Source of the DNA: a virus
DNA: 64,000 nt
Virus record (IMG/VR): IMGVR_UViG_3300033149_004566
Coordinates: 48,863-112,862 of that record
Reading direction: 5' to 3' (one strand)
Below, in pieces: positions 6,131 through 54,461 of this stretch; the stretch's first letter is position 1, and each line of letters begins with the position of its first letter. The translations under genes and the position numbers were made by a program. The notes beneath the pieces were generated by a model. It did no database searches, had not been told where the DNA came from, and saw only the letters and a program-made list of their open reading frames with translations.

Positions 6131-6140
6131 AGGTGTTAAA

Positions 6141-6401: not shown

Positions 6402-6404
6402 TCA

Positions 6405-37011: not shown

Positions 37012-37045
37012 TTAATAAAAAAAGGCCCGCCTCTCGGCAGGGCCT
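37012..37045 (-). terminator. Terminator of the minus-strand arm at the convergence point
   Basis: AGGCCC-GCC-TCTC-GGC-A-GGGCCT hairpin (37023-37045) preceded on + by A-tracts (U-tract on -); next to stop of 37048-37401. Confidence 0.75.
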
Positions 37046-37047
37046 GT

Positions 37048-37401
37048 TCATTCATCCAATTCCAATGCTTCTTCAGGATACCAGAAGTCGTTTTCCAGAA
37101 GGTAGAGTCCGTTTGATATCAACACGTCTTTTATTTTAAATGTCTTTCCGATAAATTTCTCCATTTTGCCGTCTATCCAAATGATTCCATCGTGTAGAAG
37201 CACTTTTTTTACTTTTACACTGTCGTTTATTTTAAACATTTTTGGCGATTTATCGGTTATTTCCTGACATGTCGACGAACTACTGCTCTTATCGCACGAC
37301 ATGGCGCATTTTATTTTACATAAATGACAACATCTGTAAGATTTTACGATTTCGTTTTTACAACCATTATTTTTTATATGGATCTTACAATATATATTCA
37401 T
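37048..37401 (-). CDS. Cys-rich plus SH3/KOW-like protein; paralogue of the N-terminus of E2 45118-46341
   Basis: YCKIHIKNNGCKNEIVKSYRCC..C vs YCKKHIKAGGCPNQIIKSYKCC..C; DFWYPEEAL vs NMWFPDEVV. Confidence 0.75.
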   Translation of the reverse strand: MNIYCKIHIKNNGCKNEIVKSYRCCHLCKIKCAMSCDKSSSSSTCQEITDKSPKMFKINDSVKVKKVLLHDGIIWIDGKMEKFIGKTFKIKDVLISNGLYLLENDFWYPEEALELDE

Positions 37402-37402
37402 G

Positions 37403-37756
37403 TTACAACCTTCCTAACACGTCTTTTAACGTGTCTGTTACCGTTAGAGGAATGTTTTTTATTTTTTCTTTACTTTCGGTGTTATCTTTTTTATATTTTA
37501 CGTGTTTCATTACAATGTACCACATCTGTATTATAAATGCGGCCAGATGTGTCAACTTCATGGTATCTCCATTCTCTATCTCTATAAAAGTCTCGAGAAG
37601 AGAATTAAGATCTTCTTCAAATTTACTTCCAGAAAAATCTCCTGCTGTTATGTGTAGCAGGTAAATCATTTCCATGGTTTCCGCAAAGTTTAATTTCTCG
37701 CGGAATAATTTATTTTTTAACTCGTATTTTCTTTTATCAATATCTACGCTTTTCAT
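37403..37756 (-). CDS. Hypothetical protein
   Basis: Coupled ORF. Confidence 0.6.
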   Translation of the reverse strand: MKSVDIDKRKYELKNKLFREKLNFAETMEMIYLLHITAGDFSGSKFEEDLNSLLETFIEIENGDTMKLTHLAAFIIQMWYIVMKHVKYKKDNTESKEKIKNIPLTVTDTLKDVLGRL

Positions 37757-38142
37757 GTTCTATCACGCATTATATTTAATATGTTTCTATCATTATTTAT
37801 TTTTTTTACCATATATTTAAATATGGTATCTTCGGATAAGTGTGTTATTATGACCGATGGATTACTTAAGGCACACATGATGTTTTCTTCGGTCGGGTTT
37901 TCATCGCAAATGTATGAACAATCCTTGCACGGATTGCATGATTTGCAATAATATTCGAGAGCGGCCTTGATAAATAAGTCTATGATTATCGAACCAGTAT
38001 TTTTCTTGAATCTGGTAATCATCCCGAAAAAATCTCCATCTGTTATTCTTTTATTATTCGGTTGTTTACCAGACATCTTACATATTATTAAGTTTCCATA
38101 TAAATTATAAATGATGACATTTGTTATTTCCACAATTATCAT
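37753..38142 (-). CDS. Cys-cluster family A protein
   Basis: YYCKSCNPCKDCSY. Confidence 0.75.
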   Translation of the reverse strand: MIIVEITNVIIYNLYGNLIICKMSGKQPNNKRITDGDFFGMITRFKKNTGSIIIDLFIKAALEYYCKSCNPCKDCSYICDENPTEENIMCALSNPSVIITHLSEDTIFKYMVKKINNDRNILNIMRDRT

Positions 38143-38507
38143 CCTTCTACAGTTCTATAAATTTTGAGCAAGCGTCTTATTTCCGGAATCGTAAGCTCGT
38201 CAATAATATCTTCTATCTGGAACTCATCGAGATAGTTTTCAATGTTTCCCCATGTGTTTTCGACGATCTTTATCAGATCATCATGGTTGCATCTTGCCGG
38301 CAGCGTGCATTTTCTACCGGCACATATACGACAGTTTTTTACATGGGGATTATTATATATTATCGAACACACGTCATATTTGGTCATCAAATTTGTCTTT
38401 TCTATTATAAATTTAACGATGTCTGAAATAGCGTCTTGATCGTATTCATCTTTTATGAACACTTTTTTTAATATTATGTTGCCAGACAATATTTCCATGC
38501 ATATCAT
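38139..38507 (-). CDS. Cys-cluster family A protein (divergent)
   Basis: NCRICAGRKCTLPARC. Confidence 0.65.
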   Translation of the reverse strand: MICMEILSGNIILKKVFIKDEYDQDAISDIVKFIIEKTNLMTKYDVCSIIYNNPHVKNCRICAGRKCTLPARCNHDDLIKIVENTWGNIENYLDEFQIEDIIDELTIPEIRRLLKIYRTVEG

Positions 38508-38872
38508 GTATTCATCTCCACCAGATATTTCATGATTAGATAGTCGAGCGGCAATTTTTCAGTTATTTTGTCCTTTGACACGAACTTCAATATTGATTTC
38601 ACGTCGTAATATTCTCTTATGACAATACTAAATGGCGTTGTAGTGTAGTCGATCTCAACCAGATGACAGTCCAGACATTTTTTACAATTAAACCAATAGC
38701 ATTCTATTTCTCTCATTAGCATATCTCCGTATTTTTTTTGTATTTTTTTCCAATCATTGAAATCTCTTGACGCTTGCCTGATCTCCAAGTAAACGTAATA
38801 TCGTTCGGCTTTTACTGAAGTTCTCTCCATGATGGCATTTTCTTTGTATATTTTACAAGTTACAACGTTCAT
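38504..38872 (-). CDS. Cys-cluster family A protein
   Basis: ECYWFNCKKCLDCH. Confidence 0.7.
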   Translation of the reverse strand: MNVVTCKIYKENAIMERTSVKAERYYVYLEIRQASRDFNDWKKIQKKYGDMLMREIECYWFNCKKCLDCHLVEIDYTTTPFSIVIREYYDVKSILKFVSKDKITEKLPLDYLIMKYLVEMNT

Positions 38873-39200
38873 GATAATACTCCAGTAAGATTTTGTTGTC
38901 TATACTTTTTAATCTGCGCTGCTCGGGTATTTCGATTATTACTGCCGTTGCTCCGATAAAGTAGTACACGATATCGTGTAAAGTTAGTCCGCTGGCGTTA
39001 AAATAATTACAATATTCACACTTGTAGCATTCATCGAGTCTAAGATCACATGAAAGGACGTTTCCTATGATCTTAGATGTTAACAGATGGTGTCTGCGCA
39101 ATATGATGAAAATTTTTTCCGCAATGACGTTGATATAACGCATAACGTTTTTTGATAATATGTTTAAGGAATTCTTGAAGTCTATCACTTCAATTTTCAT
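38853..39200 (-). CDS. Cys-cluster family A protein
   Basis: SCDLRLDECYKCEYCNYFNAS. Confidence 0.75.
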   Translation of the reverse strand: MKIEVIDFKNSLNILSKNVMRYINVIAEKIFIILRRHHLLTSKIIGNVLSCDLRLDECYKCEYCNYFNASGLTLHDIVYYFIGATAVIIEIPEQRRLKSIDNKILLEYYHERCNL

Positions 39201-39532
39201 CTTATTGCCCCCGTTTTTCTAAGATATGCTTTCTTCAATTGTTTTTTAGAGAAACGTTTGAATATGTATTTTAAATCGACATGTTGTAATAATGCCCGCG
39301 GAGTGTAAACGGTATATATGATGTCTTCGAGTCCTTCGTAAAGGTTAATGTTGATGTAATCACAATCATCGCATGCTAACGGGCAGTCATCGCATAAATA
39401 TTCATATACCGCTTTTTTTATTTCCGGGTTTATTACCGATAAAACCCTAATGTTGACTGAAAATACGTCTGTGCTCTTACTAGATGCAGTTATTATATTT
39501 TTATAGGTTTCATTTAGAGATATCTTTAACAT
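39197..39532 (-). CDS. Cys-cluster family A protein
   Basis: YEYLCDDCPLACDDCDY. Confidence 0.75.
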   Translation of the reverse strand: MLKISLNETYKNIITASSKSTDVFSVNIRVLSVINPEIKKAVYEYLCDDCPLACDDCDYININLYEGLEDIIYTVYTPRALLQHVDLKYIFKRFSKKQLKKAYLRKTGAIR

Positions 39533-39830
39533 TATAATCGACCATTAAATTAATATCAGATAGATATTTTAATATTAACTCTTTTCCTATGCATGTAAGT
39601 AAGATTTCTACGTTAAATATCGCGTATATCATCTTTCTCAAGCTGAAAAACGAGTTAAAATCGGCTCCATCACAATCGTCACACTTGTCGCAATTTTCAC
39701 ACAATTTTTCATACACTATTTTTTTCATGTCGGTTTTTGTCATCGTGATAATCAATTGTATTAATTTTATAATGTTGCCAGACGACATTAATCTATTTTT
39801 ATGTATCTCACAATATATTATTTTTATCAT
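39510..39830 (-). CDS. Cys-cluster family A protein
   Basis: YEKLCENCDKCDDCDG. Confidence 0.78.
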   Translation of the reverse strand: MIKIIYCEIHKNRLMSSGNIIKLIQLIITMTKTDMKKIVYEKLCENCDKCDDCDGADFNSFFSLRKMIYAIFNVEILLTCIGKELILKYLSDINLMVDYNVKDISK

Positions 39831-40125
39831 TATAATCGACTATCAAGATTTCATCGTGCAAGTGTTTTAATATTTCCGACTTTCCTATAAAAGAAAGCAC
39901 GGTTTTTATATTGTATATATCATATATCAATTTTTTCAGGTCTAAAATAACCCTCATGTTTAATCCATCACATACATCACACATATCACATTCGTTGCAA
40001 TAATCTGGAATTGCTTTTTTTAATGCATAACGAAGATCGTAAATGACTGCAAGCCCCTTTAATTCAAAATCGTTTTTTTTGGACTGTAATTTCAAATTTT
40101 TATGATACAGGATTATATAATTCAA
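39808..40125 (-). CDS. Cys-cluster family A protein
   Basis: DYCNECDMCDVCDG. Confidence 0.78.
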   Translation of the reverse strand: MNYIILYHKNLKLQSKKNDFELKGLAVIYDLRYALKKAIPDYCNECDMCDVCDGLNMRVILDLKKLIYDIYNIKTVLSFIGKSEILKHLHDEILIVDYNDKNNIL

Positions 40126-40126
40126 C

Positions 40127-40438
40127 TCACTCCACTGTCCTCAATTCCAGTTCGTTTAACAGGTCTCCGGTTTTTAATTTCTCGAGGATGTCTTTCACGT
40201 TTATATGTTTTAATACGTTCAAAAAACCAAATACATAATATATCATGTAGAAAATAGATTTATTGCGGCTATCCACGAATTCGCATCTCTCACACATGTT
40301 ACATTTGTTACAATAATCCTGAAATATAGTTATCTTGACAGCTGGATGCATGTACATGGGATCGACAATTAATGAGATTGACGAATTGTCTAAGGACATA
40401 AATTTCAAGTTTAAATATTTAGTTCTCAATATTTTCAT
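40127..40438 (-). CDS. Cys-cluster family A protein
   Basis: DYCNKCNMCERCEF. Confidence 0.78.
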   Translation of the reverse strand: MKILRTKYLNLKFMSLDNSSISLIVDPMYMHPAVKITIFQDYCNKCNMCERCEFVDSRNKSIFYMIYYVFGFLNVLKHINVKDILEKLKTGDLLNELELRTVE

Positions 40439-40779
40439 ATCGTCGCATCCGTAAGACGATTTAATAAGTAATCAGTGTCAATATTTTTGAGCAGAATTGT
40501 TTTCTCTATGCATGTTATTATGTCAAATAATTCAAAATAATCGTTTACTATTTGTCTGATTGTCATAAAAGATGCATCAAAATATTCACAGTTATCACAT
40601 CGCACGCAATAGTTACAAATATTATCCCAGAGCACGTCGTAATACTCCGTGCTTCCAAAAAATTCACTTGTAATTAACATGTATGATAACAACTTGTATA
40701 CGCTTGCTCTATCATCAAGACCCACTGATATTTTTTCGCCACTCATATTTTGCACGATATCGACAAACATAATTTTCAT
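40435..40779 (-). CDS. Cys-cluster family A protein
   Basis: NICNYCVRCDNCEYFDAS. Confidence 0.78.
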   Translation of the reverse strand: MKIMFVDIVQNMSGEKISVGLDDRASVYKLLSYMLITSEFFGSTEYYDVLWDNICNYCVRCDNCEYFDASFMTIRQIVNDYFELFDIITCIEKTILLKNIDTDYLLNRLTDATI

Positions 40780-41120
40780 TAACCATGCTCCTCCAAGTGT
40801 TGCATTAATTTTTTCGTGCTCAGATATTTTAGCATTGTTTTTTTATCCACATAATTCATAATTTCATATATATCAAAATATTCGTATATAATATCTCCTA
40901 AATACATTGCAGCGGCGTTGAAGTAGTCACAGTCGCTACATATTTCACAACTGTCACACACGCCACTAAATTCATCATGTATCATGGAGTACAATTTTTC
41001 GCATCTAATTGCATTCAGAAAGAAACCAATATTTTCACATTTGATGACGTTTGACTGCAATCTTTTCAGGTTTCTTACATCCAAATCATGAATTACGGAT
41101 ACGGACATTGCCATTTTCAT
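40779..41120 (-). CDS. Cys-cluster family A protein
   Basis: VCDSCEICSDCDYFNAA. Confidence 0.78.
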   Translation of the reverse strand: MKMAMSVSVIHDLDVRNLKRLQSNVIKCENIGFFLNAIRCEKLYSMIHDEFSGVCDSCEICSDCDYFNAAAMYLGDIIYEYFDIYEIMNYVDKKTMLKYLSTKKLMQHLEEHG

Positions 41121-41485
41121 GCTATCGTCGCCCTTTCAAAATAAGATTTTAACATGTCGGTGGACACGTGATCGAGCAACACGCGCTTGCTCCATTTTGA
41201 TGCAATGTGTTTTAAGATCTCATAATCGCCAAATTTACTATATATGATGTTATCAAGTGATGGATCGGTTGCATCAAAAAAATTACAGTAAATGCATTTA
41301 TCACATTTATAACATATATATTTTTTAATAAATTCTCTATCGTGTATCATTCTATCTGGATCTGCGATTTTTCTCGACAGATAATATATGATGTCGTCGT
41401 CGTCTACATTTAACATATAAAGATAATAATCGGTTTTTAAGTTTCTTGTTGTCAAAAGCATCCCATCAAACAATAATATTTTCAT
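41117..41485 (-). CDS. Cys-cluster family A protein
   Basis: YICYKCDKCIYCNFFDAT. Confidence 0.78.
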   Translation of the reverse strand: MKILLFDGMLLTTRNLKTDYYLYMLNVDDDDIIYYLSRKIADPDRMIHDREFIKKYICYKCDKCIYCNFFDATDPSLDNIIYSKFGDYEILKHIASKWSKRVLLDHVSTDMLKSYFERATIA

Positions 41486-41795
41486 CCTTTTTCACCAATG
41501 CGTTCGTATCGATGTGTTTTAGTATGGCAGTTTTTTCCACGTATTTCAATAATTCGTGGCTATCAAACATCAAATATATCATTTCCTCCAAGCTTTTAAA
41601 TATGGAGTAGTTGATATATTCGCATCCCACGCATGTTTGACATTGCCCACATTTCACGTGCTTGAAGGTGGCAAGCGCGTCTTCTTCTAACATGGCGTCT
41701 TGAAAAGGCTCTAAAAAATACGGATCGATACCGTTATATTTACAAAATTTAAAAGATAGATTTTGTTTATCTGTGCAAAATAACAATACTTTCAT
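41466..41795 (-). CDS. Cys-cluster family A protein
   Basis: VKCGQCQTCVGCEY. Confidence 0.78.
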   Translation of the reverse strand: MKVLLFCTDKQNLSFKFCKYNGIDPYFLEPFQDAMLEEDALATFKHVKCGQCQTCVGCEYINYSIFKSLEEMIYLMFDSHELLKYVEKTAILKHIDTNALVKKDENIIV

Positions 41796-42135
41796 TCTTC
41801 AACCTCCATAAAGTCCGCAGTGAATCATTTGACAAGTGCGAAAGCATGTGAATTTTTTTGACGTGGGCTAAAATTAATCTGACTCCGAACACCGAATATA
41901 TTATTTCTCTTAGAATTTCATTGCCGTCAAAGTATTCGCATCTATTGCATTTATCACAGTTGCAGCACAGCACTTCGTACAGCTTTTCAAATAACATGTC
42001 ATTGTTAAAAAATCCCACGCATGATAACGTTTTTTTCATGCCATTATGGCCCAATAGATACGATGAATGTTTCCGTATCAGTATTTCAAGAGCAGCTTTA
42101 TTGTGTATGATGTATTTCAACAATTTAATATTCAT
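41767..42135 (-). CDS. Cys-cluster family A protein
   Basis: YEVLCCNCDKCNRCEYFDG. Confidence 0.78.
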   Translation of the reverse strand: MNIKLLKYIIHNKAALEILIRKHSSYLLGHNGMKKTLSCVGFFNNDMLFEKLYEVLCCNCDKCNRCEYFDGNEILREIIYSVFGVRLILAHVKKIHMLSHLSNDSLRTLWRLKNESIVILHR

Positions 42136-42505
42136 GGCAAGCTGTCCCGTATCTTTGTAATAAAACTTCGTTGGATATTCTATGCATCATTTCTGATGCC
42201 GTTAAACCAACATTATTTTTTAGTTCTTCGAGAATATTTCTTGTATAGTATATGTTTTTTACTACATATTCTAATGGAAACATGTTTACGAGAATTCTGC
42301 CCCGTTTACAGATACAAACATTACATAATTTATCACTCAGCTCTTTTGAAAAATATTTTAATTTTCTATAAACACGTTTTATCGGCCACATGTTTACGTG
42401 ATCGTTCAATATGAGATGATATTTTGAACGATTATTGTTATTAAATTCTGTTATTATTGCTTTCATTTTTTCTTTCACCAAAAAAGTGGAGTTATAAAAC
42501 TCCAC
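42125..42505 (-). CDS. Cys-cluster family A protein (partial motif)
   Basis: DKLCNVCICK. Confidence 0.65.
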   Translation of the reverse strand: MEFYNSTFLVKEKMKAIITEFNNNNRSKYHLILNDHVNMWPIKRVYRKLKYFSKELSDKLCNVCICKRGRILVNMFPLEYVVKNIYYTRNILEELKNNVGLTASEMMHRISNEVLLQRYGTACHEY

Positions 42506-42857
42506 GCCTGATTAACTCGTTTTTTATGTCGTCTATCGAAAGAAAATCCAACATGTCTTCGACGTCTATGGCATCCAATAGTTCGTCCATTGTAATTCTC
42601 CCGTCCATTAGAGTCGTGACGAAGTGGTGGGCGTCGTATAATACCTTATCACAGTTTTCACACCTGTCGCAATTTTCACAGAAAACGTCCTCGATCGCTC
42701 CGCGTAATACTGACAGCAATTTACTTTCGTCGTCTTCGAGGACATAATATATATCGTGTATGAATTCCTCCATCTCCTCATATAAAGACAGGTTGTAGAT
42801 TTTTTTGAATAATTTTTTATCTTTGCCTACCGTGGTGTTATATATAATCACGTACAC
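42492..42857 (-). CDS. Cys-cluster family A protein
   Basis: VFCENCDRCENCDK. Confidence 0.78.
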   Translation of the reverse strand: MYVIIYNTTVGKDKKLFKKIYNLSLYEEMEEFIHDIYYVLEDDESKLLSVLRGAIEDVFCENCDRCENCDKVLYDAHHFVTTLMDGRITMDELLDAIDVEDMLDFLSIDDIKNELIRRGVL

Positions 42858-43312
42858 TACAGCACCTCAACGTATTCATTGCAATAGAAGCAAAAATACT
42901 TCTTTTCTCTTCTATCATACGCGGATTTTTTTCCGCACACGACACACGACCTTTTATGAAGATCTTCCACGCTATCACATGGTATCGGCTCCAATTTTTC
43001 AAACAAACTGTCGTCGCGTTTTGATATTCCTTGTACTATGTTTACCAACATGTGCCATATTTTTGCTACCTGTATTGGGTCGTATTCATATTTTAATGCG
43101 TCGAGCACGTATGCTTGTGTTTTATTTTTTATAATCACGTGTCCGAGATATTCTGATTTGGCAATATTCTCCGGCGTGTTCCATGGATGAGACCAGAACA
43201 GTATGGCGGATAATCTGACGTCATAATTTCCGCCTTTTTCAACGTCTCTTTTTTCGCAATACCTGAAAATCTTGTCTATGGTGTTGTAATAATACATGCC
43301 TAGGAAATTCAA
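42857..43312 (-). CDS. Hypothetical protein with C-terminal zinc ribbon
   Basis: CVVCGK..YFCFYCNEY. Confidence 0.7.
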   Translation of the reverse strand: MNFLGMYYYNTIDKIFRYCEKRDVEKGGNYDVRLSAILFWSHPWNTPENIAKSEYLGHVIIKNKTQAYVLDALKYEYDPIQVAKIWHMLVNIVQGISKRDDSLFEKLEPIPCDSVEDLHKRSCVVCGKKSAYDRREKKYFCFYCNEYVEVL

Positions 43313-43983
43313 GACGTGAGCACCATGAAATTTTCTACATCATAATCATATCTGAAATGATTTTTGTCCGCGTTATCACGGATTTCATTAAATATCAGGG
43401 CGCAGGCGGTTGCTGCGACTTGATTCAACGTGAAAATTATGGTTTGCTGTGTACACGGAATGTCAAGTGTTTTTCTATCTAATGTCTCTGCCCAATTATC
43501 GATTTTTTCTGGTGTCACGTAGAACACCGCGCAGAATAGTCCTCCTGTTCTTGCGTCGATTATAGTTCTCTTGTTTTTTAAAAGGACGTCTTTCACTATT
43601 TTTCTAGAGGTCATCGAGTCGACTCCGAGAACGACAAAGTCGCACTCTTTGAACTCATTCACGTGGTTTTTTCCGAACAATTCGTTGTACTTGATGACTT
43701 CAACTCTTCCAGGAGATACTTGCTTGATTCGGTTTTCAAGAGCGTCTACCTTTGGAAGATCTACTTCGTCCCTGAAGAAGAATTGATTCGGAAGGTTGTG
43801 CTCTTCGATCACGTCATCATCAAACAGCACGAATTTTCCGACGCCCATTTTTGCCAGCATCGTGCATATGATGGAGCCGACAGAGCCACATCCTATCATC
43901 ATGACGCTTACATCCTGTATTGTTTCGGGATTAATCCATCCCGATTGCCTCAAAAAGGTATTTATAATGTTCATCTTTATCAA
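43309..43983 (-). CDS. ThiF/E1-like Ubl-activating enzyme (system 1)
   Basis: FLRQ, IGCGSVGS, FDDDVIEEHNLPNQFF, PKVDAL, GVDSM..R, IDARTGG, candidate catalytic Cys in IPCT. Confidence 0.93.
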   Translation of the reverse strand: MIKMNIINTFLRQSGWINPETIQDVSVMMIGCGSVGSIICTMLAKMGVGKFVLFDDDVIEEHNLPNQFFFRDEVDLPKVDALENRIKQVSPGRVEVIKYNELFGKNHVNEFKECDFVVLGVDSMTSRKIVKDVLLKNKRTIIDARTGGLFCAVFYVTPEKIDNWAETLDRKTLDIPCTQQTIIFTLNQVAATACALIFNEIRDNADKNHFRYDYDVENFMVLTS

Positions 43984-45194
43984 CTATAATAATTGATTCT
44001 TTTTCTCGATTTTTTGATTATATAACTTCGTTTATTCACGTTGTAATAATTATGATAATCGCTTTTCGCTACGACGACGTCTTTTTTGTCAATCCATTCA
44101 TATATGCCGTCTATTTTGACTAGATATTTGTCATTGCCTTCGATTATTATCTCGCCAGGTTTCATCGCATAGTTGTCATTTTTTACAGCACATTTTTTAA
44201 GAGATCGTGAGCTGTAAGATTTTTTTATCATTGTTTTTACCTTTTCTACGAACTCTATGACTTTCGGATCGTTCATCATGGAATCTGGATCTCCGTAGAA
44301 TTTTATCTCCTTGCATTTTTTGTGAACGTCTCCAGGATAATCTATTTGCACGTGCGACTTCATGGTTGTAAAATTCATGTTTTCAGTGAACGACGTTACT
44401 ACACTGAGTACGGCCGGCCATCCCATTTTTAGGAATAGATCGATCGTTGATTTATCTGTTCCGGATATGAACGTTGACATTGATCCGTGGCTATGCCACG
44501 TGCCTATTATTGACTCCTTTTCAAATGGTTTTGTTGGAGCTTTTATCATTTCGATGTTAGAGATTCCGTAATCCTCCAACGCATCTTTTTCATAGTCAAC
44601 CGAACCGGACGTTACGCTCTGTTTGATTATCACCAACTCAGTGATGAGTATTTTCATCAGTTTGCCATCGTCGTATGTTTTTTTACCTATTATTAGGCCT
44701 CCAATTTCGCTGTTGCCAAATGACAACGTGAGAAGGGCTATTTCAGCTGCAACCTGTTCGCTAAAATATACTTCAAAGTCCTGTTTTATTTCTTTCTTTT
44801 TCGTATATTTCGCGAGCGTTTTTATCTTCTTCTTTTTTAGATCTCTCTCCTGCCATAAAGTATAGATTTTGTAGTTCCCAACCCATTTTATACATAAGTC
44901 GCGAGCGTCGCACAACTTTTTATTGTCAGTATTTTTACACGTCAGACATTTTTCGTCGTAGCTGTAATCATCTAAATGACGATCGATTTCGTTCTCATAT
45001 AGATCTACATCGTAAAGCACGTAATATGGGTCATAATGCTTGTAGTCCTCGTTCTTACAAACTTTACATAGATCGTCATTGCCATTGAGATACCACGCGC
45101 ATTTTTCGCATATTCTTTCATCCATTTCTACACCCCATGCATAGTCCATCTTTATCCAAGGCAAACATTTTTCCGCATGATACACATTCGTCAT
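43980..45194 (-). CDS. JAB/MPN metalloprotease with Cys-rich N-terminus (system 1)
   Basis: EIGGLIIG..IIGTWHSHGSMSTFISGTD (JAMM E..HxH..S..D). Confidence 0.9.
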   Translation of the reverse strand: MTNVYHAEKCLPWIKMDYAWGVEMDERICEKCAWYLNGNDDLCKVCKNEDYKHYDPYYVLYDVDLYENEIDRHLDDYSYDEKCLTCKNTDNKKLCDARDLCIKWVGNYKIYTLWQERDLKKKKIKTLAKYTKKKEIKQDFEVYFSEQVAAEIALLTLSFGNSEIGGLIIGKKTYDDGKLMKILITELVIIKQSVTSGSVDYEKDALEDYGISNIEMIKAPTKPFEKESIIGTWHSHGSMSTFISGTDKSTIDLFLKMGWPAVLSVVTSFTENMNFTTMKSHVQIDYPGDVHKKCKEIKFYGDPDSMMNDPKVIEFVEKVKTMIKKSYSSRSLKKCAVKNDNYAMKPGEIIIEGNDKYLVKIDGIYEWIDKKDVVVAKSDYHNYYNVNKRSYIIKKSRKRINYYS

Positions 45195-46341
45195 AGCCGA
45201 CGACTATTTTACAGAAATCCGTTATATATGAATCTTCTGGATTGTATGTCACGCACATTTCTCTAATGAGTAGTACCAGGTTAACTATGTCCAACTGTGC
45301 AGACGCATTTTTTATGGCAACGCTAAAGCTGCCCATGCATATCTTATCTGTACCGATATGTGGCGTGATATACGCATCATACGGGGCAAATGTTGGGCCC
45401 TCGTGTTTTACCAACACGGGATCCATTCCGATAGAGCAAGACCATGTGAACGTTCCGATCGGGATGTATTCCTCGCAATGATCGTTCTCGAAGTATAATT
45501 CTAGATCGTGATACACGACGTTTATTCCGTTGTCCACGACCTCTACGTCGATGTTATCAAGTTTTTTTAATATTTCCAACGTTTTTGGCAAGTTTAATAG
45601 ATTTTTATGACAGTTTTTGATGTTTTGTGATATTTCTCTTTTCTTAACGGCTGATTTGACGTTTGCAAGTAGGTTAAAATTGTACTTGAGAGCAATGTTA
45701 AATAACGGCAAGAATTCCGCAATTTTTTTGTCTGTTAATTTTATCTCGTCTCCATTGACCACCGTTTCAACAAAGTTTTCTAAGACCGTATTTACGTTCG
45801 TTATGGCGTAAAAGTTTTCATCCAGTTTGGACGCTATGATTTCGCCCTTCTCATTTACTATGATGGACTTGGCAATGAACGCGTCGCCGACTCTATCCAT
45901 TAATATGAGGTGCGGGATTTCACCCTTGACGTCCGAGTTTAGATAATCGTCTATTGTCGACACCAACTTACCACCTTCAAAGTTAAATCTGTTAACGACC
46001 TCGTCTGGAAACCACATGTTGTCTTCCGATAAGTTAACGAATCCCGGAATCCTGTCGACGACTATTTGAATTTTATTTAATGAATCAATTGCGTCTTCAT
46101 CCCAATATATGGCTTTTGAAGCCAATACTCTGGTTATATATGCCATGTCTCCAATTCTTAATCTTTTATCGTGTTCAAGAGTCTTATGTTCGCATTCGTT
46201 GTCGATGCCGATTGCACATCTATACGTTTCACAGTCTTCGTGGATCACGTCGCAAGCGGCACAGCACTTGTAACTTTTAATTATCTGGTTCGGACATCCG
46301 CCCGCTTTTATATGCTTTTTGCAATACATCGATGTTATCAT
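45118..46341 (-). CDS. Prokaryotic E2-like Ubl-conjugating enzyme with N-terminal Cys-rich/SH3-like module (system 1)
   Basis: C-terminal TPHIGTDKICMG..YNPEDSY (HPH-type motif plus catalytic Cys); between JAB and Ubls. Confidence 0.78.
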   Translation of the reverse strand: MITSMYCKKHIKAGGCPNQIIKSYKCCAACDVIHEDCETYRCAIGIDNECEHKTLEHDKRLRIGDMAYITRVLASKAIYWDEDAIDSLNKIQIVVDRIPGFVNLSEDNMWFPDEVVNRFNFEGGKLVSTIDDYLNSDVKGEIPHLILMDRVGDAFIAKSIIVNEKGEIIASKLDENFYAITNVNTVLENFVETVVNGDEIKLTDKKIAEFLPLFNIALKYNFNLLANVKSAVKKREISQNIKNCHKNLLNLPKTLEILKKLDNIDVEVVDNGINVVYHDLELYFENDHCEEYIPIGTFTWSCSIGMDPVLVKHEGPTFAPYDAYITPHIGTDKICMGSFSVAIKNASAQLDIVNLVLLIREMCVTYNPEDSYITDFCKIVVGYDECVSCGKMFALDKDGLCMGCRNG

Positions 46342-46356: not shown

Positions 46357-46638
46357 TTATCGAGGTAAAACTGTCATAAAAATGGGAAATAGGGGATTTT
46401 TATCATTTGTAATTCTTGTAGATTTGAAAGAAATTATTCCTTCCGGAATATCTTTTACGAGCGTGCTCTTGTTAATTATTTTTCCAGATATTACCATGGG
46501 TTGAGTACCATCTTTTACACTGATCTTTTCATCATCTATTAATTGTTCAACGACCTGACTACAGGTCATATCCTCGTCAAATTCGACAGTATAGATGCCA
46601 ATGCCCCAAATGGCGAAGTTAAGTTTTCTTTTTGTCAT
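46357..46638 (-). CDS. Ubiquitin-like beta-grasp protein, copy lacking the conjugation Gly
   Basis: Paralogue of 46643-46930; ISFKSTRITNDKNPLFPIF. Confidence 0.7.
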   Translation of the reverse strand: MTKRKLNFAIWGIGIYTVEFDEDMTCSQVVEQLIDDEKISVKDGTQPMVISGKIINKSTLVKDIPEGIISFKSTRITNDKNPLFPIFMTVLPR

Positions 46639-46930
46639 GTTTTCAACTCTTTTGAGGAAAATTATTATAAAAAATAGGGAAAAGGGCTTTTTTGCCCTGT
46701 TTGATTTCCGGTGGCGTGAAGCTAATCATTCCTTCTGGAATGTCTTTCACGAGAGTGCTCACGTCAATCACTCTGCCAGATACTTTCATTACCTGGGCCC
46801 CGTCTTCTACACGAAGCTTTCCATCGATAATTAATTGTTCAACGACCTGACTGCAGGTCATATCCTCGTCAAATTCGGCAGTGTAAAGGCCAACGCCCCA
46901 AATGCCGAAGTTAAGTTTTCTTTTGGCCAT
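46539..46930. repeat. DNA-level duplication between the two Ubl genes (about 46539-46638 and 46831-46930)
   Basis: ttaattgttcaacgacctgact[a/g]caggtcatatcctcgtcaaattcg...gccccaaatg[g/c]cgaagttaagttttctttt shared. Confidence 0.9.
46643..46930 (-). CDS. Ubiquitin-like beta-grasp protein with Gly and C-terminal extension (system 1)
   Basis: EFDEDMTCSQVV..VSGRVID.STLVKD..ISFTPPEIKQG|KKALFPIF; adjacent to E2/JAB/E1. Confidence 0.75.
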   Translation of the reverse strand: MAKRKLNFGIWGVGLYTAEFDEDMTCSQVVEQLIIDGKLRVEDGAQVMKVSGRVIDVSTLVKDIPEGMISFTPPEIKQGKKALFPIFYNNFPQKS

Positions 46931-46935
46931 TTTTT

Positions 46936-47400
46936 TCAACTCATCGGTTTTATCGTTGCACTGAAAGACGATTTTACAGGCACGTCTTCGAGGTGCAATA
47001 AAAATTCTTCATTTTCATTTATTTCGTTATTTCCTTTCGGATAATCTATCATGATGACACTTTCAATGTCATTCGCTTTTTTATAGATTATCCTGTACGA
47101 ATTGTTTAAAATGCATCCTTTTTGGTATGCTAATACGAAGGCTTCATATTTGAGCCTTCCATTACATGATCTACATTGGGTTTTTTCAAGTTCGTTTACC
47201 GAATAATTTAAAAACCCCTGTTTCAACGCCAATAGCATGTTTTGCGTTGAGTTTTCTGTAACGGTTACCGACCTTGTCCTACATCTCGTGCATTTAAAAA
47301 TCATGGACATTATAGATGCATGGAAGTCGGTCTTTAATAGGTTCTCCATATAGGAGCTTATTGGGTCAATGTACTCTGACATTATTTGTTCATCTCGCAA
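46936..47400 (-). CDS. Zinc-ribbon protein
   Basis: FKCTRC...QCRSCNG. Confidence 0.7.
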   Translation of the reverse strand: MRDEQIMSEYIDPISSYMENLLKTDFHASIMSMIFKCTRCRTRSVTVTENSTQNMLLALKQGFLNYSVNELEKTQCRSCNGRLKYEAFVLAYQKGCILNNSYRIIYKKANDIESVIMIDYPKGNNEINENEEFLLHLEDVPVKSSFSATIKPMS

Positions 47401-48056
47401 TACTCATCGCTAATGATGATCGGAGTGATAGTTTCCGGTAAGTGCACGTGACTGCACGCGTGCAGTCTATTGTCTTTTACCACAATGGTATTACAACGTT
47501 GTTTTACGTTGAACACTCTATCCATGATGTATTTTTCACACCTGATCATATTTGCCCAGATTTTTCCGATCTCGAGAATTTTTTGCTTCATGATTGGAAC
47601 GTCTTCGTCTTTTATTTGATTTGCAACGGATAGTCTCATTCCGTGCAGTGTTGGAAAACACCACAAGAAGAATTCAAATGCCAACACTTTCATGCGATCA
47701 AAGTCAACCGGAAAATCATCGATGACAAATTCAACGACGCATACGCTTTCATTGATAAAGAATTTTTCCATTGCTTCTATCAACGTTTTTATCGTTTTTT
47801 CATCGTAAAACTCTTTTGATATTCGGAAGATCATGTTCGACACGTTGAATTTCGGCAGCTCGTCGTAGTAAACGTATCTATCGGCACGTATTTTCAACAT
47901 CATGTTGAATATTTTTTTGTCTTCGTAGATGCTGTCATCGATTATTAAATTGACCACATTATTGCTTGCAATGTTTTTTATATCAGCGACTATGTCTTCC
48001 GAAGGCACGTTCTTTACGTAGATTTTATATTTAATAATAATCACCCATTTCATCAA
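47382..48056 (-). CDS. Hypothetical protein
   Basis: Coupled ORF; C-terminal C..ACSH. Confidence 0.65.
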   Translation of the reverse strand: MMKWVIIIKYKIYVKNVPSEDIVADIKNIASNNVVNLIIDDSIYEDKKIFNMMLKIRADRYVYYDELPKFNVSNMIFRISKEFYDEKTIKTLIEAMEKFFINESVCVVEFVIDDFPVDFDRMKVLAFEFFLWCFPTLHGMRLSVANQIKDEDVPIMKQKILEIGKIWANMIRCEKYIMDRVFNVKQRCNTIVVKDNRLHACSHVHLPETITPIIISDEYCEMNK

Positions 48057-49641
48057 TGCTGTTTCCTTCTATAATATTGTTTATTATAGAAGATATTGCG
48101 GTCGGAATGTTGCTGCTATCAACATATAACATTTTCTTACCCCACATTTTTTTTAATGTTGCTTGTGAAGACGTGCAACATATCGGTATGAAATGCACTC
48201 CTTCGCGTTTCACGTCGTAGTACATGTACAACGTGTCTGCTATTGCTTCGTTGCCACTGTAGGCACATCCTCCGTGATGCGGTAACCCATCCGATATGAA
48301 CATGATTATCTTTAATTTTTCCGGTCTGTCCAGAATTTTCTCGAGCTCATATCTTATACTGTATCCGTCGGCGTTTTCATAGTCCGCAATCACGGACTTG
48401 TACATCCTGCTCGTTATCGTATTTTCATTATCATCATCAAAATCTCTAAAGACGTGATGATAACATGTGTATCCACTGGAAGATGCCTCGAAGCTTATGG
48501 CGCGTATGTTCGCGCCCAATTCTATTAATATGTTCTCGATGTTTGACGCTATGTCCCGTAATGTGTCTTCGGTAAATCCCTGTACCGAGCCGGAGCCGTC
48601 CATCATTATTGTTGCCGCCATCGATATCCTTTGTTTTTGCGGTAAATAAAATCTTTTCGGTTCATGTATTGACGTCGGTATGCTGAAGTCGTATATTTCG
48701 CCTTCGTAGTCCAATTTTGCCGTCCTTTTTTCCATCAGTGTTTGTTCCAGCAATTTTAATTCTTCGTCTTTTATTTTATGCATCTTTATTTTATTATTTT
48801 TCAGTGAATGAATCTTGATTTCCTTATATTCATACGGTAGATTAATGGGTTGTGGTGTAAATTTTGTCCTTTTTACCATGGTTTTGAATCTTTCTGTTGT
48901 CTTTTTTATCGTTTCTTTGTATTTTTCGATGAATTCGTTCATGTCTTTTTCCAGTTCTTCCAACGACTTATCAGAATTTAGAATATCTTTCATCATTTTA
49001 CAATGTTCTGTATTCTTGCGCTCTTCAGTTTCCAGCTCTGTTGTGGTAGATATAATTCTACTTCTATTTGGCAGCTCGGCTCTGATTCTGGATCTATCCT
49101 TCATCCACATCTTGAGGATTTCTATTGTTGCCCATAATCCTCTGACAGGATTGGGATCTTCTAACAACGTGTCGAATATTTCTCTTATCCGCGGCATGTC
49201 TATGTCGTCAAAATTTCTATGTCTTGCTCTTTCTAGGTCGATTACGAATAATGAGAGGCTTTTCAACGGCTCTACATTATCGCGATATATTTTCAGATAT
49301 TTTCTTGTTCCGGGCAATAACTCTTGAATTATTGTTTGAACTCTGACGTCTTCCACGACGTTAAAAATGTACCTATATGTTTCGTCTATATTCGCCACTA
49401 TTGTGGGATCTGAGAAAATAACAAACGCAGAGGCATAATGACTAAAGCCTCTCACGTATTCTTCGCTTTCAACGTTTTTTTCGTAAGTCAAAATTACTTT
49501 TTTATCCGTGTCCATTGTCACTATTGGAATTATAGATCTATCGATAGTTTCAAATGTTGTTATTTCAACATTTCCCTTTTCGATGCCGGACAACGTGCTG
49601 AGTATCGTTTTGATCATGTTTTCTCTTTCTTGGTTATTCAT
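48031..49641 (-). CDS. vWA/MIDAS-domain protein (CobT/NorD-like partner of MoxR ATPase)
   Basis: MMDGSGSV (DxSxS), ENADGYSI, FISDGLP; N-terminal FNVVEDVRV. Confidence 0.88.
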   Translation of the reverse strand: MNNQERENMIKTILSTLSGIEKGNVEITTFETIDRSIIPIVTMDTDKKVILTYEKNVESEEYVRGFSHYASAFVIFSDPTIVANIDETYRYIFNVVEDVRVQTIIQELLPGTRKYLKIYRDNVEPLKSLSLFVIDLERARHRNFDDIDMPRIREIFDTLLEDPNPVRGLWATIEILKMWMKDRSRIRAELPNRSRIISTTTELETEERKNTEHCKMMKDILNSDKSLEELEKDMNEFIEKYKETIKKTTERFKTMVKRTKFTPQPINLPYEYKEIKIHSLKNNKIKMHKIKDEELKLLEQTLMEKRTAKLDYEGEIYDFSIPTSIHEPKRFYLPQKQRISMAATIMMDGSGSVQGFTEDTLRDIASNIENILIELGANIRAISFEASSSGYTCYHHVFRDFDDDNENTITSRMYKSVIADYENADGYSIRYELEKILDRPEKLKIIMFISDGLPHHGGCAYSGNEAIADTLYMYYDVKREGVHFIPICCTSSQATLKKMWGKKMLYVDSSNIPTAISSIINNIIEGNSIDEMGDYY

Positions 49642-50453
49642 AGTTCCACGTCGTGTGCAATTAATAGCTCTTTTATTGCGTCTCTCTGTTTCTTTTCCAC
49701 CTGATCGACAATAGTTTTATTTATGCTCAGCCCGTGTTCATATGCGAAGAGCATTTTGAACAACAGTCTCATGGTGACATACTTGGATGATTTTCTCATG
49801 TTGTAAAATGCATTGATGATTTTGTTGTTCGGAGTAAGATCTTTAGTCTTGCATATTTCATGTACCACGTTTTTTGGTGGAAAGTCCATGATGTAATTAA
49901 AAAATCTCGAGACCGTTGCTTCGTTTTGTTTAAAGGTTCCTCTAAGCCCCGGATTTTCCGTAGACGCCATCAAAACCTTGCATTCGATTGGAATTTGAAT
50001 TCCCAGGGCACCAACATGATATGATTTTCTAAAATCGGTTAGCTGATTTATTGCAGCTATCACGTTCGGCTCTCCGAGATTTCTTTCATCCAATACGATA
50101 ATTACATCTCCCGGTCTTTCATGATCCATGTTTTTTGCCATCCAATTGCCCATTAGTAGAGCATTGGTTATGAATCCCGGCCTAAAGCTTCCATCCGCCA
50201 GAGGCGATCCTTCAAAATGAAAGTTTCTCGTCTCATTATTGATCGGAATCACCATGATCGGAATTTTCCAATCTTTTGCCAATGACATTAATAGCGTGGT
50301 TTTTCCGATTCCTGGCTCTCCGATCAAGTTTATCGGCATGTTTTCTATTATTTCACTAACTTCTTCTCTATACATGTTGTAATTTATAAATCCCGGAATG
50401 TCCGGGATATAAGAGTTTACAAACTCTTTATTCATTTCTGGTAATTTATTCAA
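49638..50453 (-). CDS. MoxR-family AAA+ ATPase (CbbQ/NorQ/CobS-like)
   Basis: LIGEPGIGKTT, VLDERN, STENPG.RGT..NEATVSRF. Confidence 0.9.
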   Translation of the reverse strand: MNKLPEMNKEFVNSYIPDIPGFINYNMYREEVSEIIENMPINLIGEPGIGKTTLLMSLAKDWKIPIMVIPINNETRNFHFEGSPLADGSFRPGFITNALLMGNWMAKNMDHERPGDVIIVLDERNLGEPNVIAAINQLTDFRKSYHVGALGIQIPIECKVLMASTENPGLRGTFKQNEATVSRFFNYIMDFPPKNVVHEICKTKDLTPNNKIINAFYNMRKSSKYVTMRLLFKMLFAYEHGLSINKTIVDQVEKKQRDAIKELLIAHDVEL

Positions 50454-51540
50454 TCTGTCTTACCACCAAACTTCTCATTGAATAATATATTGTTGTATAT
50501 TTTTTATATTTTATCATGCCGGCAATTATATTTGCGCCAAAATCTGCCGTTGTCGGCAGTATTACCGGTGTTGTTATGTTGGTACTCACGGGTCGTACCA
50601 ACCTTCCGTCAATCATTTTACAATTTATCCTTTCTTTAAGGGTTTTTGTAGCACCATGCTTGACGGGAATGATGACGCCGTCAAATCCATCCGGTGAGAT
50701 GGTTATGTCAAAGAGGGGCTTTTTATAATATTCGGCAATTTCATCGATATAAAACTTTAGTTCTATATCGTTAACCGTATTTATAATAAAATCTACATCT
50801 TTCATAAGACTTTCATTGAAATCTATCTCATATACATTTTTATCTATAAATCTTCTTCTATACTGTCTCGCTGCGCTGCTTTTCCTTGACATTAGATCGT
50901 CGTATGCAAATCCAGCTGCTATATTTTTATCATTGATATATCCGTCATCTATGATTATTACATGGTCATGATAATTTTGAACGTAAAATCCCACTGAGCC
51001 CAAGCCAATTAACAATATATTGTACGGATTGAAAAAAATCTTTTGTTTTTTATATGGCAACATACATTTTACATGCCTAAGCGTTTTTCCAATACAATGA
51101 TTTAATACTTCTTGCGATACTACCGTTTTCATGGCACACGCATATGAAGCGAATAAATAATATGGGATTATAACTGGAGGACGCGTGGGATTGTACGCGA
51201 AAACGTTAAATCCAGACAAGCTATCAACATCAAATAATGACACTACTTTTCTACACGCTCCACGTGAGTCAAGTACATATACTGTATTTATTATATCGGC
51301 AATTTTATTGCAATTCATGACACATGTCTTGTGGTCATTTTTTTTAATAATTCTATGTTTTATAAGACTTTCCACAGTTGAATAACAAGCGTTATATACC
51401 AATGATGGAAATCCAAGAGTGTGCATATTTTCAAAATCACCATAAGTTCGGTATCCCTTATATCTAATAATTACTTGCTTATTTGCAAGCTTGGATACAT
51501 CATACGCGTTATTTAATATCCTATGATAATCAATATTCAT
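50446..51540 (-). CDS. ThiF/E1-like protein with two ThiF-like halves, probably catalytically impaired (system 2)
   Basis: IGLGSVG present, but NLNR replaced by NIAAG and VDN by VND; N-terminal YHRIL..YDVSKLANKQVII. Confidence 0.75.
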   Translation of the reverse strand: MNIDYHRILNNAYDVSKLANKQVIIRYKGYRTYGDFENMHTLGFPSLVYNACYSTVESLIKHRIIKKNDHKTCVMNCNKIADIINTVYVLDSRGACRKVVSLFDVDSLSGFNVFAYNPTRPPVIIPYYLFASYACAMKTVVSQEVLNHCIGKTLRHVKCMLPYKKQKIFFNPYNILLIGLGSVGFYVQNYHDHVIIIDDGYINDKNIAAGFAYDDLMSRKSSAARQYRRRFIDKNVYEIDFNESLMKDVDFIINTVNDIELKFYIDEIAEYYKKPLFDITISPDGFDGVIIPVKHGATKTLKERINCKMIDGRLVRPVSTNITTPVILPTTADFGANIIAGMIKYKKYTTIYYSMRSLVVRQIE

Positions 51541-52684: not shown

Positions 52685-53456
52685 ACGCTTTTATCACGTC
52701 CTTTATTATTTCATCGTACATTTTTGACATCATCATTATGTCTTCTTCTTTCATGAATCGGTTTATCTTCTTGATTATTTTTATTTTTTCGTCATATTTT
52801 TCAGTCACCGGCGGCGTCCCGAAATATATGTAAGGTATTCCGCGCACGACCGTCTCTTTACTCTTTCCGATCTTCTTGTTTTTCACGGAATTCATCGTGA
52901 AATATGATGAAGACAACATGGATATTTTTTCGCTGAAATATGTTTGCATTTGCGGACGATTTGCGCCGCCGTTAATCATAAAAAATGGAAACGGATAATT
53001 CTTCCTGTCAAATTTCGGAAGGCTCCTGTCGTCTGTCGTTATAGTTTCCACGGAGTACGCCTCGTCGTTTATTATTTCATAGATATTCAACTCGTTGTTG
53101 TTATATATCATGAATATGGGCGTCGTCGCAGTTAAAGATTCCCATCTTATGAAATTTTTCATATCGGATTTTGACGGCACTGTTTCGCTCGCATGTGAAT
53201 GAGCGTGTCCAACAACATGCAATCCTATCGGTAATCCCAATTCTATATCGTGTCTCCGTTTTGATGACGATATGACGTGATCTACGTCATTTTCAATGTA
53301 TTTCATCTGTACGACGTCATATATTCTTATCGTGTTATTAAAATCCGTTCCTATGAGATAGAATGCGATCTCTTTTCTCGCCAATTTCGATAGAAATCGC
53401 ATTTTTTTCACGATGTAATCCGGAATGATCACTTTTTCGATTGCCAAAAAGAACAT
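52677..53456 (-). CDS. JAB/MPN metalloprotease (system 2)
   Basis: KEIAFYLIG..VVGHAHSHASETVPSKSD. Confidence 0.9.
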   Translation of the reverse strand: MFFLAIEKVIIPDYIVKKMRFLSKLARKEIAFYLIGTDFNNTIRIYDVVQMKYIENDVDHVISSSKRRHDIELGLPIGLHVVGHAHSHASETVPSKSDMKNFIRWESLTATTPIFMIYNNNELNIYEIINDEAYSVETITTDDRSLPKFDRKNYPFPFFMINGGANRPQMQTYFSEKISMLSSSYFTMNSVKNKKIGKSKETVVRGIPYIYFGTPPVTEKYDEKIKIIKKINRFMKEEDIMMMSKMYDEIIKDVIKAYE

Positions 53457-54329: not shown

Positions 54330-54461
54330 CTTTTTTGACTCTCTTTTCTTTTTTTAATATGTTTAATATTGTTGGGTATTCATATTCAATGATGCTTCTT
54401 CTCCGCAATGACGATGCTTTCATTAGCTCTTTTTGATACAATATTTTCAGCTTTCTCAGAT

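Follow-up and report, generated by a model that had tools for sequence, protein, structure and literature searches.

The viral gene accordion is already known as a general phenomenon, and large paralogous families of big DNA viruses, like the families located at the ends of rudivirus genomes, mostly consist of host-interaction genes. The poxviral ankyrin/PRANC (F-box-like) and BTB-kelch families, with their many tandem, diverged paralogs that combine a variable part with a shared module, are substrate adaptors of ubiquitin ligases, and one of the rudivirus terminal families yielded the anti-CRISPR protein AcrID1. Operons of the Iyer/Burroughs/Aravind type, the Cap2/Cap3 module of CBASS (cyclic oligonucleotide-based antiphage signaling system) and the Bil system, in turn, encode an adjacent ThiF-type E1 enzyme and JAMM peptidase that belong to ubiquitin-like protein (Ubl) systems. 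Here we describe a tandem array of small, Cys-rich paralogs that is located next to genes of the latter type in a 64,000-nucleotide stretch of viral DNA (positions 48,863 to 112,862 of the IMG/VR record IMGVR_UViG_3300033149_004566; hereinafter, the window, to which coordinates refer unless indicated otherwise).

The array resembles the poxviral families in its layout, and the genome that carries it likewise encodes ubiquitin-type enzymes. However, there is no relation in sequence or fold: the array proteins contain a Cys4 cluster and nonapeptide helices instead of an F-box or BTB domain, there is no known partner of the cullin or Skp1 type, and the host is archaeal. With the rudivirus families, the array shares the origin from an archaeal virus, the small size and orphan status of the proteins, the presence of several diverged copies and a presumed role in conflict, but there is no homology, the copy number is much higher, a Cys cluster is conserved, and the location is internal to an operon rather than terminal. 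The neighboring genes are similar to the described E1/E2/JAB/Ubl cassettes, with an adjacent ThiF E1 and JAMM peptidase, an E2-like protein that displays a pattern of the His...Cys and NP[ED]D[SP] type, and small candidate Ubl genes alongside. In contrast, none of the described cassettes is followed by a paralog array, and the E2 and Ubl candidates in the window, unlike those in the described cassettes, are too diverged to be matched by any profile. The novelty lies in the sequence family itself, in the combination of a 2-2-2 Cys4 motif with a 9-residue helical repeat, and in the position of the array within a Ubl super-locus of an Asgard virus.

The array (37753-42857, minus strand) comprises 15 consecutive, co-directional open reading frames (ORFs) of 103-129 amino acids (aa) each (m01-m15 in Table 1). 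The neighboring genes overlap by 1-29 nucleotides (nt) or are spaced by 1 nt, the junctions often being of the ATGA type, and tetramers resembling a Shine-Dalgarno (SD) sequence are located 5' of 10 of the 17 starts across the array stretch, against a background of 9.4% (P = 6e-7). These overlaps and SD-like tetramers indicate that the array is a string of translationally coupled genes rather than a collection of chance ORFs. For the ten core genes (m03-m12; 38853-42135), pairwise BLASTP comparisons mostly produced E-values between 1e-5 and 1e-14. A hidden Markov model (HMM) trained on these ten proteins only and searched against all 459 stop-to-stop frames of the window recovered four members outside the training set, namely, m01, m02, m13 and m15, with E-values from 4e-8 to 4e-4, and the next best frame had an E-value of 0.25. 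The BLASTP matches and the HMM recognition of left-out members reveal tandem paralogs of common origin, as is characteristic of accordion families. One of the 15 proteins, m14, was recognized neither by the core HMM nor by hhalign, and is placed in the family by its position, its size, a looser Cys pattern and a nonapeptide-like tail judged by eye. By sequence comparison, the family therefore consists of 14 statistically supported tandem paralogs and a probable fifteenth one. The next gene downstream (37403-37756) encodes a protein without Cys for which both the core HMM and hhalign were negative; a match was obtained only with a profile in which this protein had already been included, so that its membership is not demonstrable. 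A profile search detected no additional family copy anywhere else in the 112,862-bp virus record.

The array proteins combine a variable N-terminal half, a central Cys cluster and a patterned C-terminal part. The exact C-x2-C-x2-C-x2-C spacing is found in 10 of the 15 proteins; the variants are CxxCx3CxxC in one protein, Cx6CxxCxxC and Cx4CxxCxxC in two, and three clustered Cys in m02, besides the looser pattern of m14. In the family alignment, two Cys columns are invariant, the other two are at least 90% conserved, and there is no conserved His. The residue after each Cys is mostly Asp, Glu or Asn, and the fourth Cys is followed by [DEN][YF] in 8 of 15 proteins. The N-terminal half spans 43-65 aa and is close to random in pairwise comparison (mean identity 14.7%; BLOSUM score 0.05 per column), the only recurring element being a short hydrophobic start (MKI...). 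The Cys cluster has a mean pairwise identity of 40.7%, compared to 19.3% for the C-terminal part; given the latter value, the conservation at the C-terminus is one of pattern rather than of sequence identity. The proteins thus have one hypervariable and one conserved region, another feature of accordion families. The isoelectric points (pI) span 4.2 to 9.4, with a strongly negative net charge (-9 to -15) in several members; therefore, the family lacks the uniform charge of a DNA mimic or a DNA-binding protein. No signal peptide or transmembrane segment is apparent by eye, with no predictor used, in the translations.

Most of what the original prediction, made from the sequence of the window, stated about these genes holds: the 15 consecutive, mostly overlapping genes of the given size (with m14 being a positional look-alike only), the variable N-termini, and the central Cys cluster that often has the exact CxxCxxCxxC spacing followed by [DEN][YF]. 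The claim of a conserved helical C-terminus stands with respect to the helices, which are seen in the structural models, and to the shared pattern, but not with respect to sequence identity. The difference in spacing from ferredoxins (CxxCxxCxxxC) and from RING domains, which had been pointed out as well, is evident from the 2-2-2 spacing and the number of ligands. Membership in the RING/U-box class is rejected, given the four conserved Cys and no conserved His, compared to the eight Cys/His ligands of the RING cross-brace that bind two Zn, and the lack of a Pfam RING match in the 14 members scanned. Membership in the LIM class, defined by eight ligands in the pattern C-x2-C-x16-23-H-x2-C-x2-C-x2-C-x16-21-C-x2-C/H/D, is rejected as well, with no flanking ligand pairs and no match to Pfam LIM among the same 14 members.

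The C-terminal part is internally repetitive, with a period of 9 residues (in self-comparison against shuffled sequences, offset 9 has z = 6.8 and offset 18 has z = 2.7), as in LRKMIYAIF / NVEILLTCI / GKELILKYL / SDINLMVDY. According to the structural models, this C-terminal module is a string of about four tandem 9-residue short-helix repeats with hydrophobic residues at repeat positions 5, 6 and 9. Modeling with AlphaFold2 (AF2) from the paralog alignment, applied to the Cys cluster and C-terminal part of m10, produced helices at residues 25-32, 35-41, 44-50 and 53-65 with the 9-residue period and a predicted local distance difference test (pLDDT) score of 71-89 from residue 21 on. In the full-length model of m06, pLDDT is 79-93 at residues 80-113 and below 60 in the N-terminal half and the Cys cluster. 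The confident C-terminal helices are common to both models.

Matches outside the window were limited to four long enzymes with sulfotransferase or methyltransferase domains from other metagenomes (P0017-P0020), which align with the C-terminal part of the profile only, through 5-11 tandem stretches each. Their repeats are of the type xxE[IM]LxH[LFI]x (AEEIISHFT, AQQVLDHFS) and are covered by no Pfam model. We regard this as a sequence resemblance between repeats, with homology not demonstrated; the repeats of these enzymes may represent an undescribed nonapeptide helical repeat.

Apart from these repeat-type resemblances, the family is an orphan. HMMER searches over 1.84e9 representatives (about 15e9 proteins) with the family HMM retrieved only the window's own genes as members, and a word-indexed profile search of 5.8e9 clusters found nothing besides those genes. 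There was no family match in Pfam (a scan that covered 14 members, all except m04), PHROGs, NCBIfam or PADLOC, and no relatives were detected among GenBank phages (by DNA comparison and tblastn), among PDB sequences (by profile) or in the ESM Atlas. A scan of IMG/VR with a back-translated DNA pattern yielded 110 places, none of them a family member, the best one being a low-complexity (CDR)n repeat. Structure searches with the two models had the same outcome: in Foldseek comparison to PDB, the full-length model had no match at E <= 10 and the C-terminal model had a single match at E 8.2; a wide VIA-align search gave best Z scores of 2.5 and 2.3; and no structural neighbor was found in BFVD. 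As the models are small and only partly confident, these results do not establish a new fold. The family clusters present in IMG, NCBI and Logan are start-codon variants of a single genome sequence, with the longest contig of 117,419 bp. Furthermore, the nearest TerL is 46% identical and comes from a 3.9-kb contig, and searches of IMG/VR with TerL and with the E2-like protein found no relatives. Thus, the virus lineage is barely sampled, which makes the orphan status of the family less surprising.

Within the array, DNA repeats are limited to the Cys codons. In the protein tree, which has the shape of a star, the tips have a median length of 2.3 substitutions per site, and the adjacent m09 and m10 (92/91) are the only supported pair. 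The star-like tree together with the confinement of DNA similarity to Cys codons implies that the duplications are old, or the divergence fast, or both. Accordingly, the early view of a family that matches nothing described, with low DNA identity among its members and an old, diversified expansion behind it, withstood sequence, profile, structure and tree analysis.

We interpret the array as a repertoire of target-specific binders for virus-host conflict, that is, for host takeover or anti-defense, a reading to which we assign slightly less than an even chance. Under this scenario, old tandem duplications (a gene accordion) would have given rise to a lineage-specific multigene family in the nonstructural, leftward half of a tailed archaeal virus with a genome of roughly 113-117 kb. 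The genes would be translated from a polycistronic message by coupled reinitiation, using the overlapping stops and starts and the SD-like motifs. Each product would be a small cytoplasmic protein in which a variable N-terminal half, opening with a short hydrophobic, strand-like segment, is followed by the Cys cluster and the shared C-terminal module. The variable half would provide each paralog with a different binding target, whereas the Cys cluster and the repeat module would serve as the common scaffold, dock or dimerization unit. The Cys cluster most likely would bind metal, with Zn as the first guess and Fe-S as the second. A single tetrahedral site within one chain is difficult to build from four Cys that lie only 10 residues apart at most, so that Zn perhaps would be shared across two sites or two chains, possibly, those of different paralogs. 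There is precedent for both arrangements: the ligands of the central LIM tetrad, (H/C)-x2-C-x2-C-x2-C, are distributed over two Zn sites, and a single Zn is shared by two CxxC motifs from two chains in the Rad50 zinc hook. The LIM tetrad has the same 2-residue spacing of four ligands as the array proteins, which lack the flanking CxxC pairs located 16-23 residues away in LIM; the array proteins also have no coiled coil like that of Rad50, and the comparison with LIM and Rad50 is no more than an analogy.

The star tree with its long tips and the lone supported, adjacent pair fits an old tandem duplication followed by fast divergence, and the orphan status is as expected for fast-evolving conflict genes in a barely sampled lineage; the precedents from big DNA viruses and rudiviruses point in the same direction. 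Several considerations weigh against this interpretation. We infer the biological role from architecture and neighborhood only; the N-terminal half may be variable merely through lack of constraint; AF2 models this half and the Cys cluster with low confidence; the family is limited to one genome sequence; and the explanation is generic and overlaps with the adaptor hypothesis discussed below.

The window comes from a tailed virus, with head and tail genes including TerL on the plus strand. Two of the plus-strand genes encode fusions with parts of transcription factors: LigD 3'-phosphoesterase (E 8e-16) with a TFIIS zinc ribbon (1.2e-17) at 3078-3884, and a MuF head protein (1.2e-14) with a TFIIB cyclin repeat (3e-12) at 6405-8663. 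The minus strand encodes an RNA ligase and three ThiF genes. For the Helarchaeota virus Nidhogg, a circular-closed genome has been reported, in a virus set of up to 117.5 kb, with an RNA ligase and three E1 homologs (Rambo et al., bioRxiv 10.1101/2021.07.29.454249). The three ThiF genes of the window, one next to the array and two in the second set described below, agree in number with these E1 homologs, and the LigD phosphoesterase-TFIIS fusion matches a feature listed in the same preprint. Judging by gene content and genome size alone, the virus is very probably Nidhogg, a virus of Asgard archaea. The words "paralog", "JAB" and "cysteine" are absent from that version of the preprint, so that the array, the JAB peptidase and the E2-like parts are not described there. 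Scans of the window detected neither Rfam families nor tRNA genes.

On the minus strand, about 60 genes abut one another from 63869 down to 37048, forming a single uninterrupted train of about 27 kb. A promoter gap of 510 nt at 54330-54839, which would delimit an operon consisting of the two cascades and the array, was considered and rejected: the apparent gap arises when only ORFs of at least 75 aa are listed and is filled by three small overlapping minus-strand ORFs (53, 73 and 66 aa; 54304-54843). Because the whole train is gapless, the adjacency of the array to the E1-JAB-E2-Ubl genes is weak evidence of a functional connection, and this is the strongest new reason for caution in interpreting the neighborhood. 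Further upstream in the same train (57070-60158), there is a second tandem array, in which seven paralogs (142-169 aa) share conserved Cys pairs as well as the invariant motif C-N-[MF]-x-A-[KR]-[IV]; Pfam gave no match for the two members tested. Kinship of the two arrays was rejected by hhalign (probability 0.4%).

The genes that adjoin the array only partly conform to the E1-JAB-E2-Ubl cascade that the original prediction placed there. The E1 and JAB assignments are secure by profile matches (Table 1), and both proteins retain their characteristic motifs, the nucleotide-binding loop GCGSVGS in E1 and an intact JAMM motif, H-x-H-x7-S-x2-D (HSH-x7-S-x2-D), in the JAB protein (HSHGSMSTFISGTD). 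The E2 assignment is weak, at the level of motifs only, and the Ubl assignment lacks profile support. The E2-like protein has no match to Pfam UQ_con; it is weakly similar, with E 0.009, to a protein adjoining the JAB and E1 genes of a distant viral cassette (L001), and a profile of three such sequences produced collinear, sub-threshold matches (E 0.6-0.9) to Ubc13-type E2 chains, a sequence similarity that is suggestive only. The two candidate Ubls match no ubiquitin, ThiS or MoaD profile and have no C-terminal GG. The 151-aa protein encoded between E1 and the array matches no family, its PADLOC Cas10 hit (E 0.005, 13.8 bits) being at chance level and its Atlas matches lying only below 0.9. 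At the other end of the array, the last leftward gene encodes a paralog of the Cys-rich N-terminal domain of the E2-like protein (BLASTP E 3e-16, 32% identity to residues 4-116). The domain common to this protein and the N-terminal 117 aa of the E2-like protein consists of a Cys-rich part and a beta-rich segment ending with W[FY]P[DE]E; the E2-like N-terminal domain matches no known family. Genome-wide, no UQ_con, RING, U-box or ubiquitin family of Pfam was detected at threshold, and a zf-RING_2 search gave a 14-bit sub-threshold match only, outside the locus, in agreement with the earlier statement that no E3 is recognizable.

A second set of Ubl-type genes is located further upstream of the array (46936-54329, minus strand) and includes, in addition to the components listed in Table 1, small Zn-ribbon proteins. 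Ribbon-like terminal segments of the CxxC...CxxC type are present in nearly all parts of both sets (43980-45194, 45118-46341, 42857-43312, 46936-47400 and 53429-53902, all on the minus strand). A search of IMG/VR with E1 identified two distant cassettes only, L001 and L002. In L001 (IMGVR_UViG_3300032123_000052, 208 kb), positions 6096-11276 of that record encode two proteins with E2-like C-termini, a JAB protein and a ThiF E1, and there is no paralog array. This cassette also encodes a 158-aa protein that resembles two tandem halves, a candidate di-Ubl, and adjoins the portal and structural genes.

Table 1. Features of the array and its surroundings, in order of transcription (window coordinates)
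Feature	Coordinates	Strand	Description and evidence
Second-set JAB	52677-53456	-	HAHSH...S..D motif
Second-set ThiF-domain proteins	50446-51540, 51530-52684	-	Long N-terminal extensions
Second-set AAA_5/MoxR-like ATPase	49638-50453	-	
Second-set vWA/CobT-like protein	48031-49641	-	
Candidate Ubls	46357-46638, 46643-46939	-	Two paralogous proteins of ~95 aa; 65% mutual identity
E2-like protein	45118-46341	-	407 aa; E2-like C-terminal domain, weakly supported; PHIGTDKIC ... YNPEDS motif
JAB/JAMM peptidase	43980-45194	-	Cys-rich N-terminal extension; PADLOC JAB 3.7e-9; Prok-JAB 3e-4
E1-like adenylyltransferase (ThiF)	43309-43983	-	Pfam ThiF 3.7e-32; PADLOC E1-E2 4.6e-19
Orphan between E1 and array	42857-43312	-	151 aa; C-terminal CxxC...CxxC ribbon (from sequence)
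m01	42492-42857	-	121 aa; CENCDRCENC, exact Cys motif; core HMM E 4e-8
m02	42125-42505	-	126 aa; degenerate C-x2-C-x-C; core HMM E 3.6e-4
m03	41767-42135	-	122 aa; CCNCDKCNRC-EY; BLASTP to other members down to ~1e-10
m04	41466-41795	-	109 aa; CGQCQTCVGC-EY; BLASTP and motif
m05	41117-41485	-	122 aa; CYKCDKCIYC-NF; BLASTP and motif
m06	40779-41120	-	113 aa; CDSCEICSDC-DY; full-length AF2 model md7d6f93819bb
m07	40435-40779	-	114 aa; CNYCVRCDNC-EY; BLASTP and motif
m08	40127-40438	-	103 aa; CNKCNMCERC-EF; BLASTP and motif
m09	39808-40125	-	105 aa; CNECDMCDVC; closest pair with m10, BLASTP ~1e-14
m10	39510-39830	-	106 aa; CENCDKCDDC; Cys cluster and C-terminal part folded alone (AF2 model mf86ae8ac84a4)
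m11	39197-39532	-	111 aa; CDDCPLACDDC-DY, one spacer of 3; BLASTP and motif
m12	38853-39200	-	115 aa; C-x6-C-x2-C-x2-C-NY; BLASTP and motif
m13	38504-38872	-	122 aa; C-x4-C-x2-C-x2-C; core HMM E 3.8e-7
m14	38139-38507	-	122 aa; probable member, very diverged; C-x2-C-x4-C-x5-C; tail QIEDIIDEL / TIPEIRRLL by eye
m15	37753-38142	-	129 aa; CKSCNPCKDC-SY; core HMM E 7e-7
Gene 3' of array	37403-37756	-	117 aa; no Cys
Paralog of E2-like N-terminal domain	37048-37401	-	117 aa; Cys-rich; last leftward gene; BLASTP
Terminator-like hairpin	37026-37041	-	G+C hairpin followed by T7, just past the last gene

The location of the array raises the possibility, which we consider rather unlikely, that the paralogs are interchangeable E3-like or substrate-adaptor subunits of the viral Ubl system, with the Cys cluster and the repeats docking on the E2-like protein or on E2~Ubl and the N-terminal half selecting the target. 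The array starts one gene past E1, and the gapless train to which it belongs also includes the Ubl candidates, the E2-like protein and JAB; the array is bracketed by cascade-related genes, with E1 and the 151-aa Zn-ribbon protein on the upstream side and, given the BLASTP match of the last leftward gene, a paralog of the E2-like N-terminal domain on the downstream side. Although circumstantial and derived from sequence comparison, this bracketing provides the strongest of the new arguments for a functional connection to the cascade; nevertheless, in a train of this length, neighborhood carries little weight. Given that searches of the genome revealed neither RING or U-box proteins nor any other E3, the specificity factor of the system appears to be missing, and the combination of a variable N-terminal with a conserved C-terminal region is the layout of adaptor families such as the poxviral ANK/F-box-like proteins; the CxxC ribbons in almost every component of the cascade are also compatible with the adaptor hypothesis. 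However, four ligands are insufficient for a RING cross-brace, the E2 and Ubl assignments on which the hypothesis depends are insecure, and the distantly related viral E2-like/JAB/E1 cassette of L001 lacks an array. Moreover, prokaryotic Ubl systems of a comparable type function without an E3; to our knowledge, none is needed by CBASS Cap2/Cap3 or Bil. The most elaborate form of this idea, in which the Ubl machinery of an Asgard virus would be equipped with about 15 structurally novel specificity subunits that steer the tagging or de-tagging of many host or viral targets, we judge to be unlikely.

The other explanations start from the Cys cluster. Archaeal viruses commonly encode small proteins of the Zn-finger and Zn-ribbon types, and it is conceivable but improbable that the paralogs are small, zinc-finger-type regulators of transcription, or other nucleic acid-binding proteins, that reprogram host or viral expression. 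Small Cys4 proteins with helical C-termini would suit such a function, and this virus is rich in pieces of transcription factors fused to other proteins, such as the TFIIS ribbon and the TFIIB repeat mentioned above. Yet no profile or fold match to helix-turn-helix (HTH), winged HTH or known zinc-finger domains was obtained, the broad pI range with strongly acidic members is unlike that of a family of DNA-binding proteins, and the 2-residue spacing of all four Cys corresponds to no known DNA-binding finger. Even less probably, the cluster could hold Fe-S, with three Cys as ligands and the fourth one supplied by either the same chain or a different one, so that the proteins would be redox or electron-transfer modules for an anaerobic host. 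The first three Cys are spaced as in the core of the ferredoxin motif, CxxCxxCxxxCP, a marginal Fer4_6 match (E 0.3) was obtained for one member, the presumed host is anaerobic, and a CX2CX2CX2C half-motif is listed once among the 2[4Fe-4S] ferredoxin subtypes (PMC8928951). Nevertheless, membership in Fer4 is rejected: the marginal match is the best one, and none of the 14 members scanned has a significant Fer4 match; the fourth spacer is 2 rather than 3 residues, the Pro that follows the fourth Cys in ferredoxins is missing, and there is no second cluster motif. In addition, acidic or polar residues separate the Cys, in place of small or hydrophobic ones, and fifteen diverged redox copies have no obvious rationale. 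Finally, the C-x-x repeats, the many tandem, precursor-like paralogs and the ThiF-like enzymes nearby might suggest that the genes encode precursors of ribosomally synthesized, post-translationally modified peptides with Cys-Xaa-Xaa repeats, similar to heterocycloanthracin, that are processed by the E1-like or another enzyme of the locus. Precursors of thiazole/oxazole-modified microcins (TOMM) with CXX repeats are indeed known (PMC2674419). This is the least probable of the explanations, with hardly any chance of being correct: no match to the cyclodehydratase YcaO (PF02624) or to a radical SAM maturase (PF04055) was found at E <= 1 across the 112.9-kb record, with positive controls, which led us to reject it; proteins of this size, in which a central Cys cluster precedes a folded and conserved C-terminal module, are unlike leader-core precursors; and the grouping of the ThiF genes with JAB and E2-like genes is a conjugation context.

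Should the array serve the adjacent Ubl enzymes, this virus would provide the first case, apart from eukaryotic viruses, of a repertoire of Ubl specificity factors encoded by a virus. The array would then be the equivalent, in a virus of prokaryotes, of the poxviral ANK/F-box repertoires, and its products would constitute a new type of E3-like factor from the lineage that is closest to eukaryotes. As the ubiquitin system of eukaryotes presumably descends from that of Asgard archaea, the emergence of target selection by E3-like factors would become open to experiment. Even otherwise, this archaeal virus presents a clean case of a gene accordion that is both large and old, with an undescribed sequence family, an unusual 2-2-2 Cys4 motif and a 9-residue helical repeat module, which makes the array a good source of candidates for new anti-defense or host-takeover proteins.

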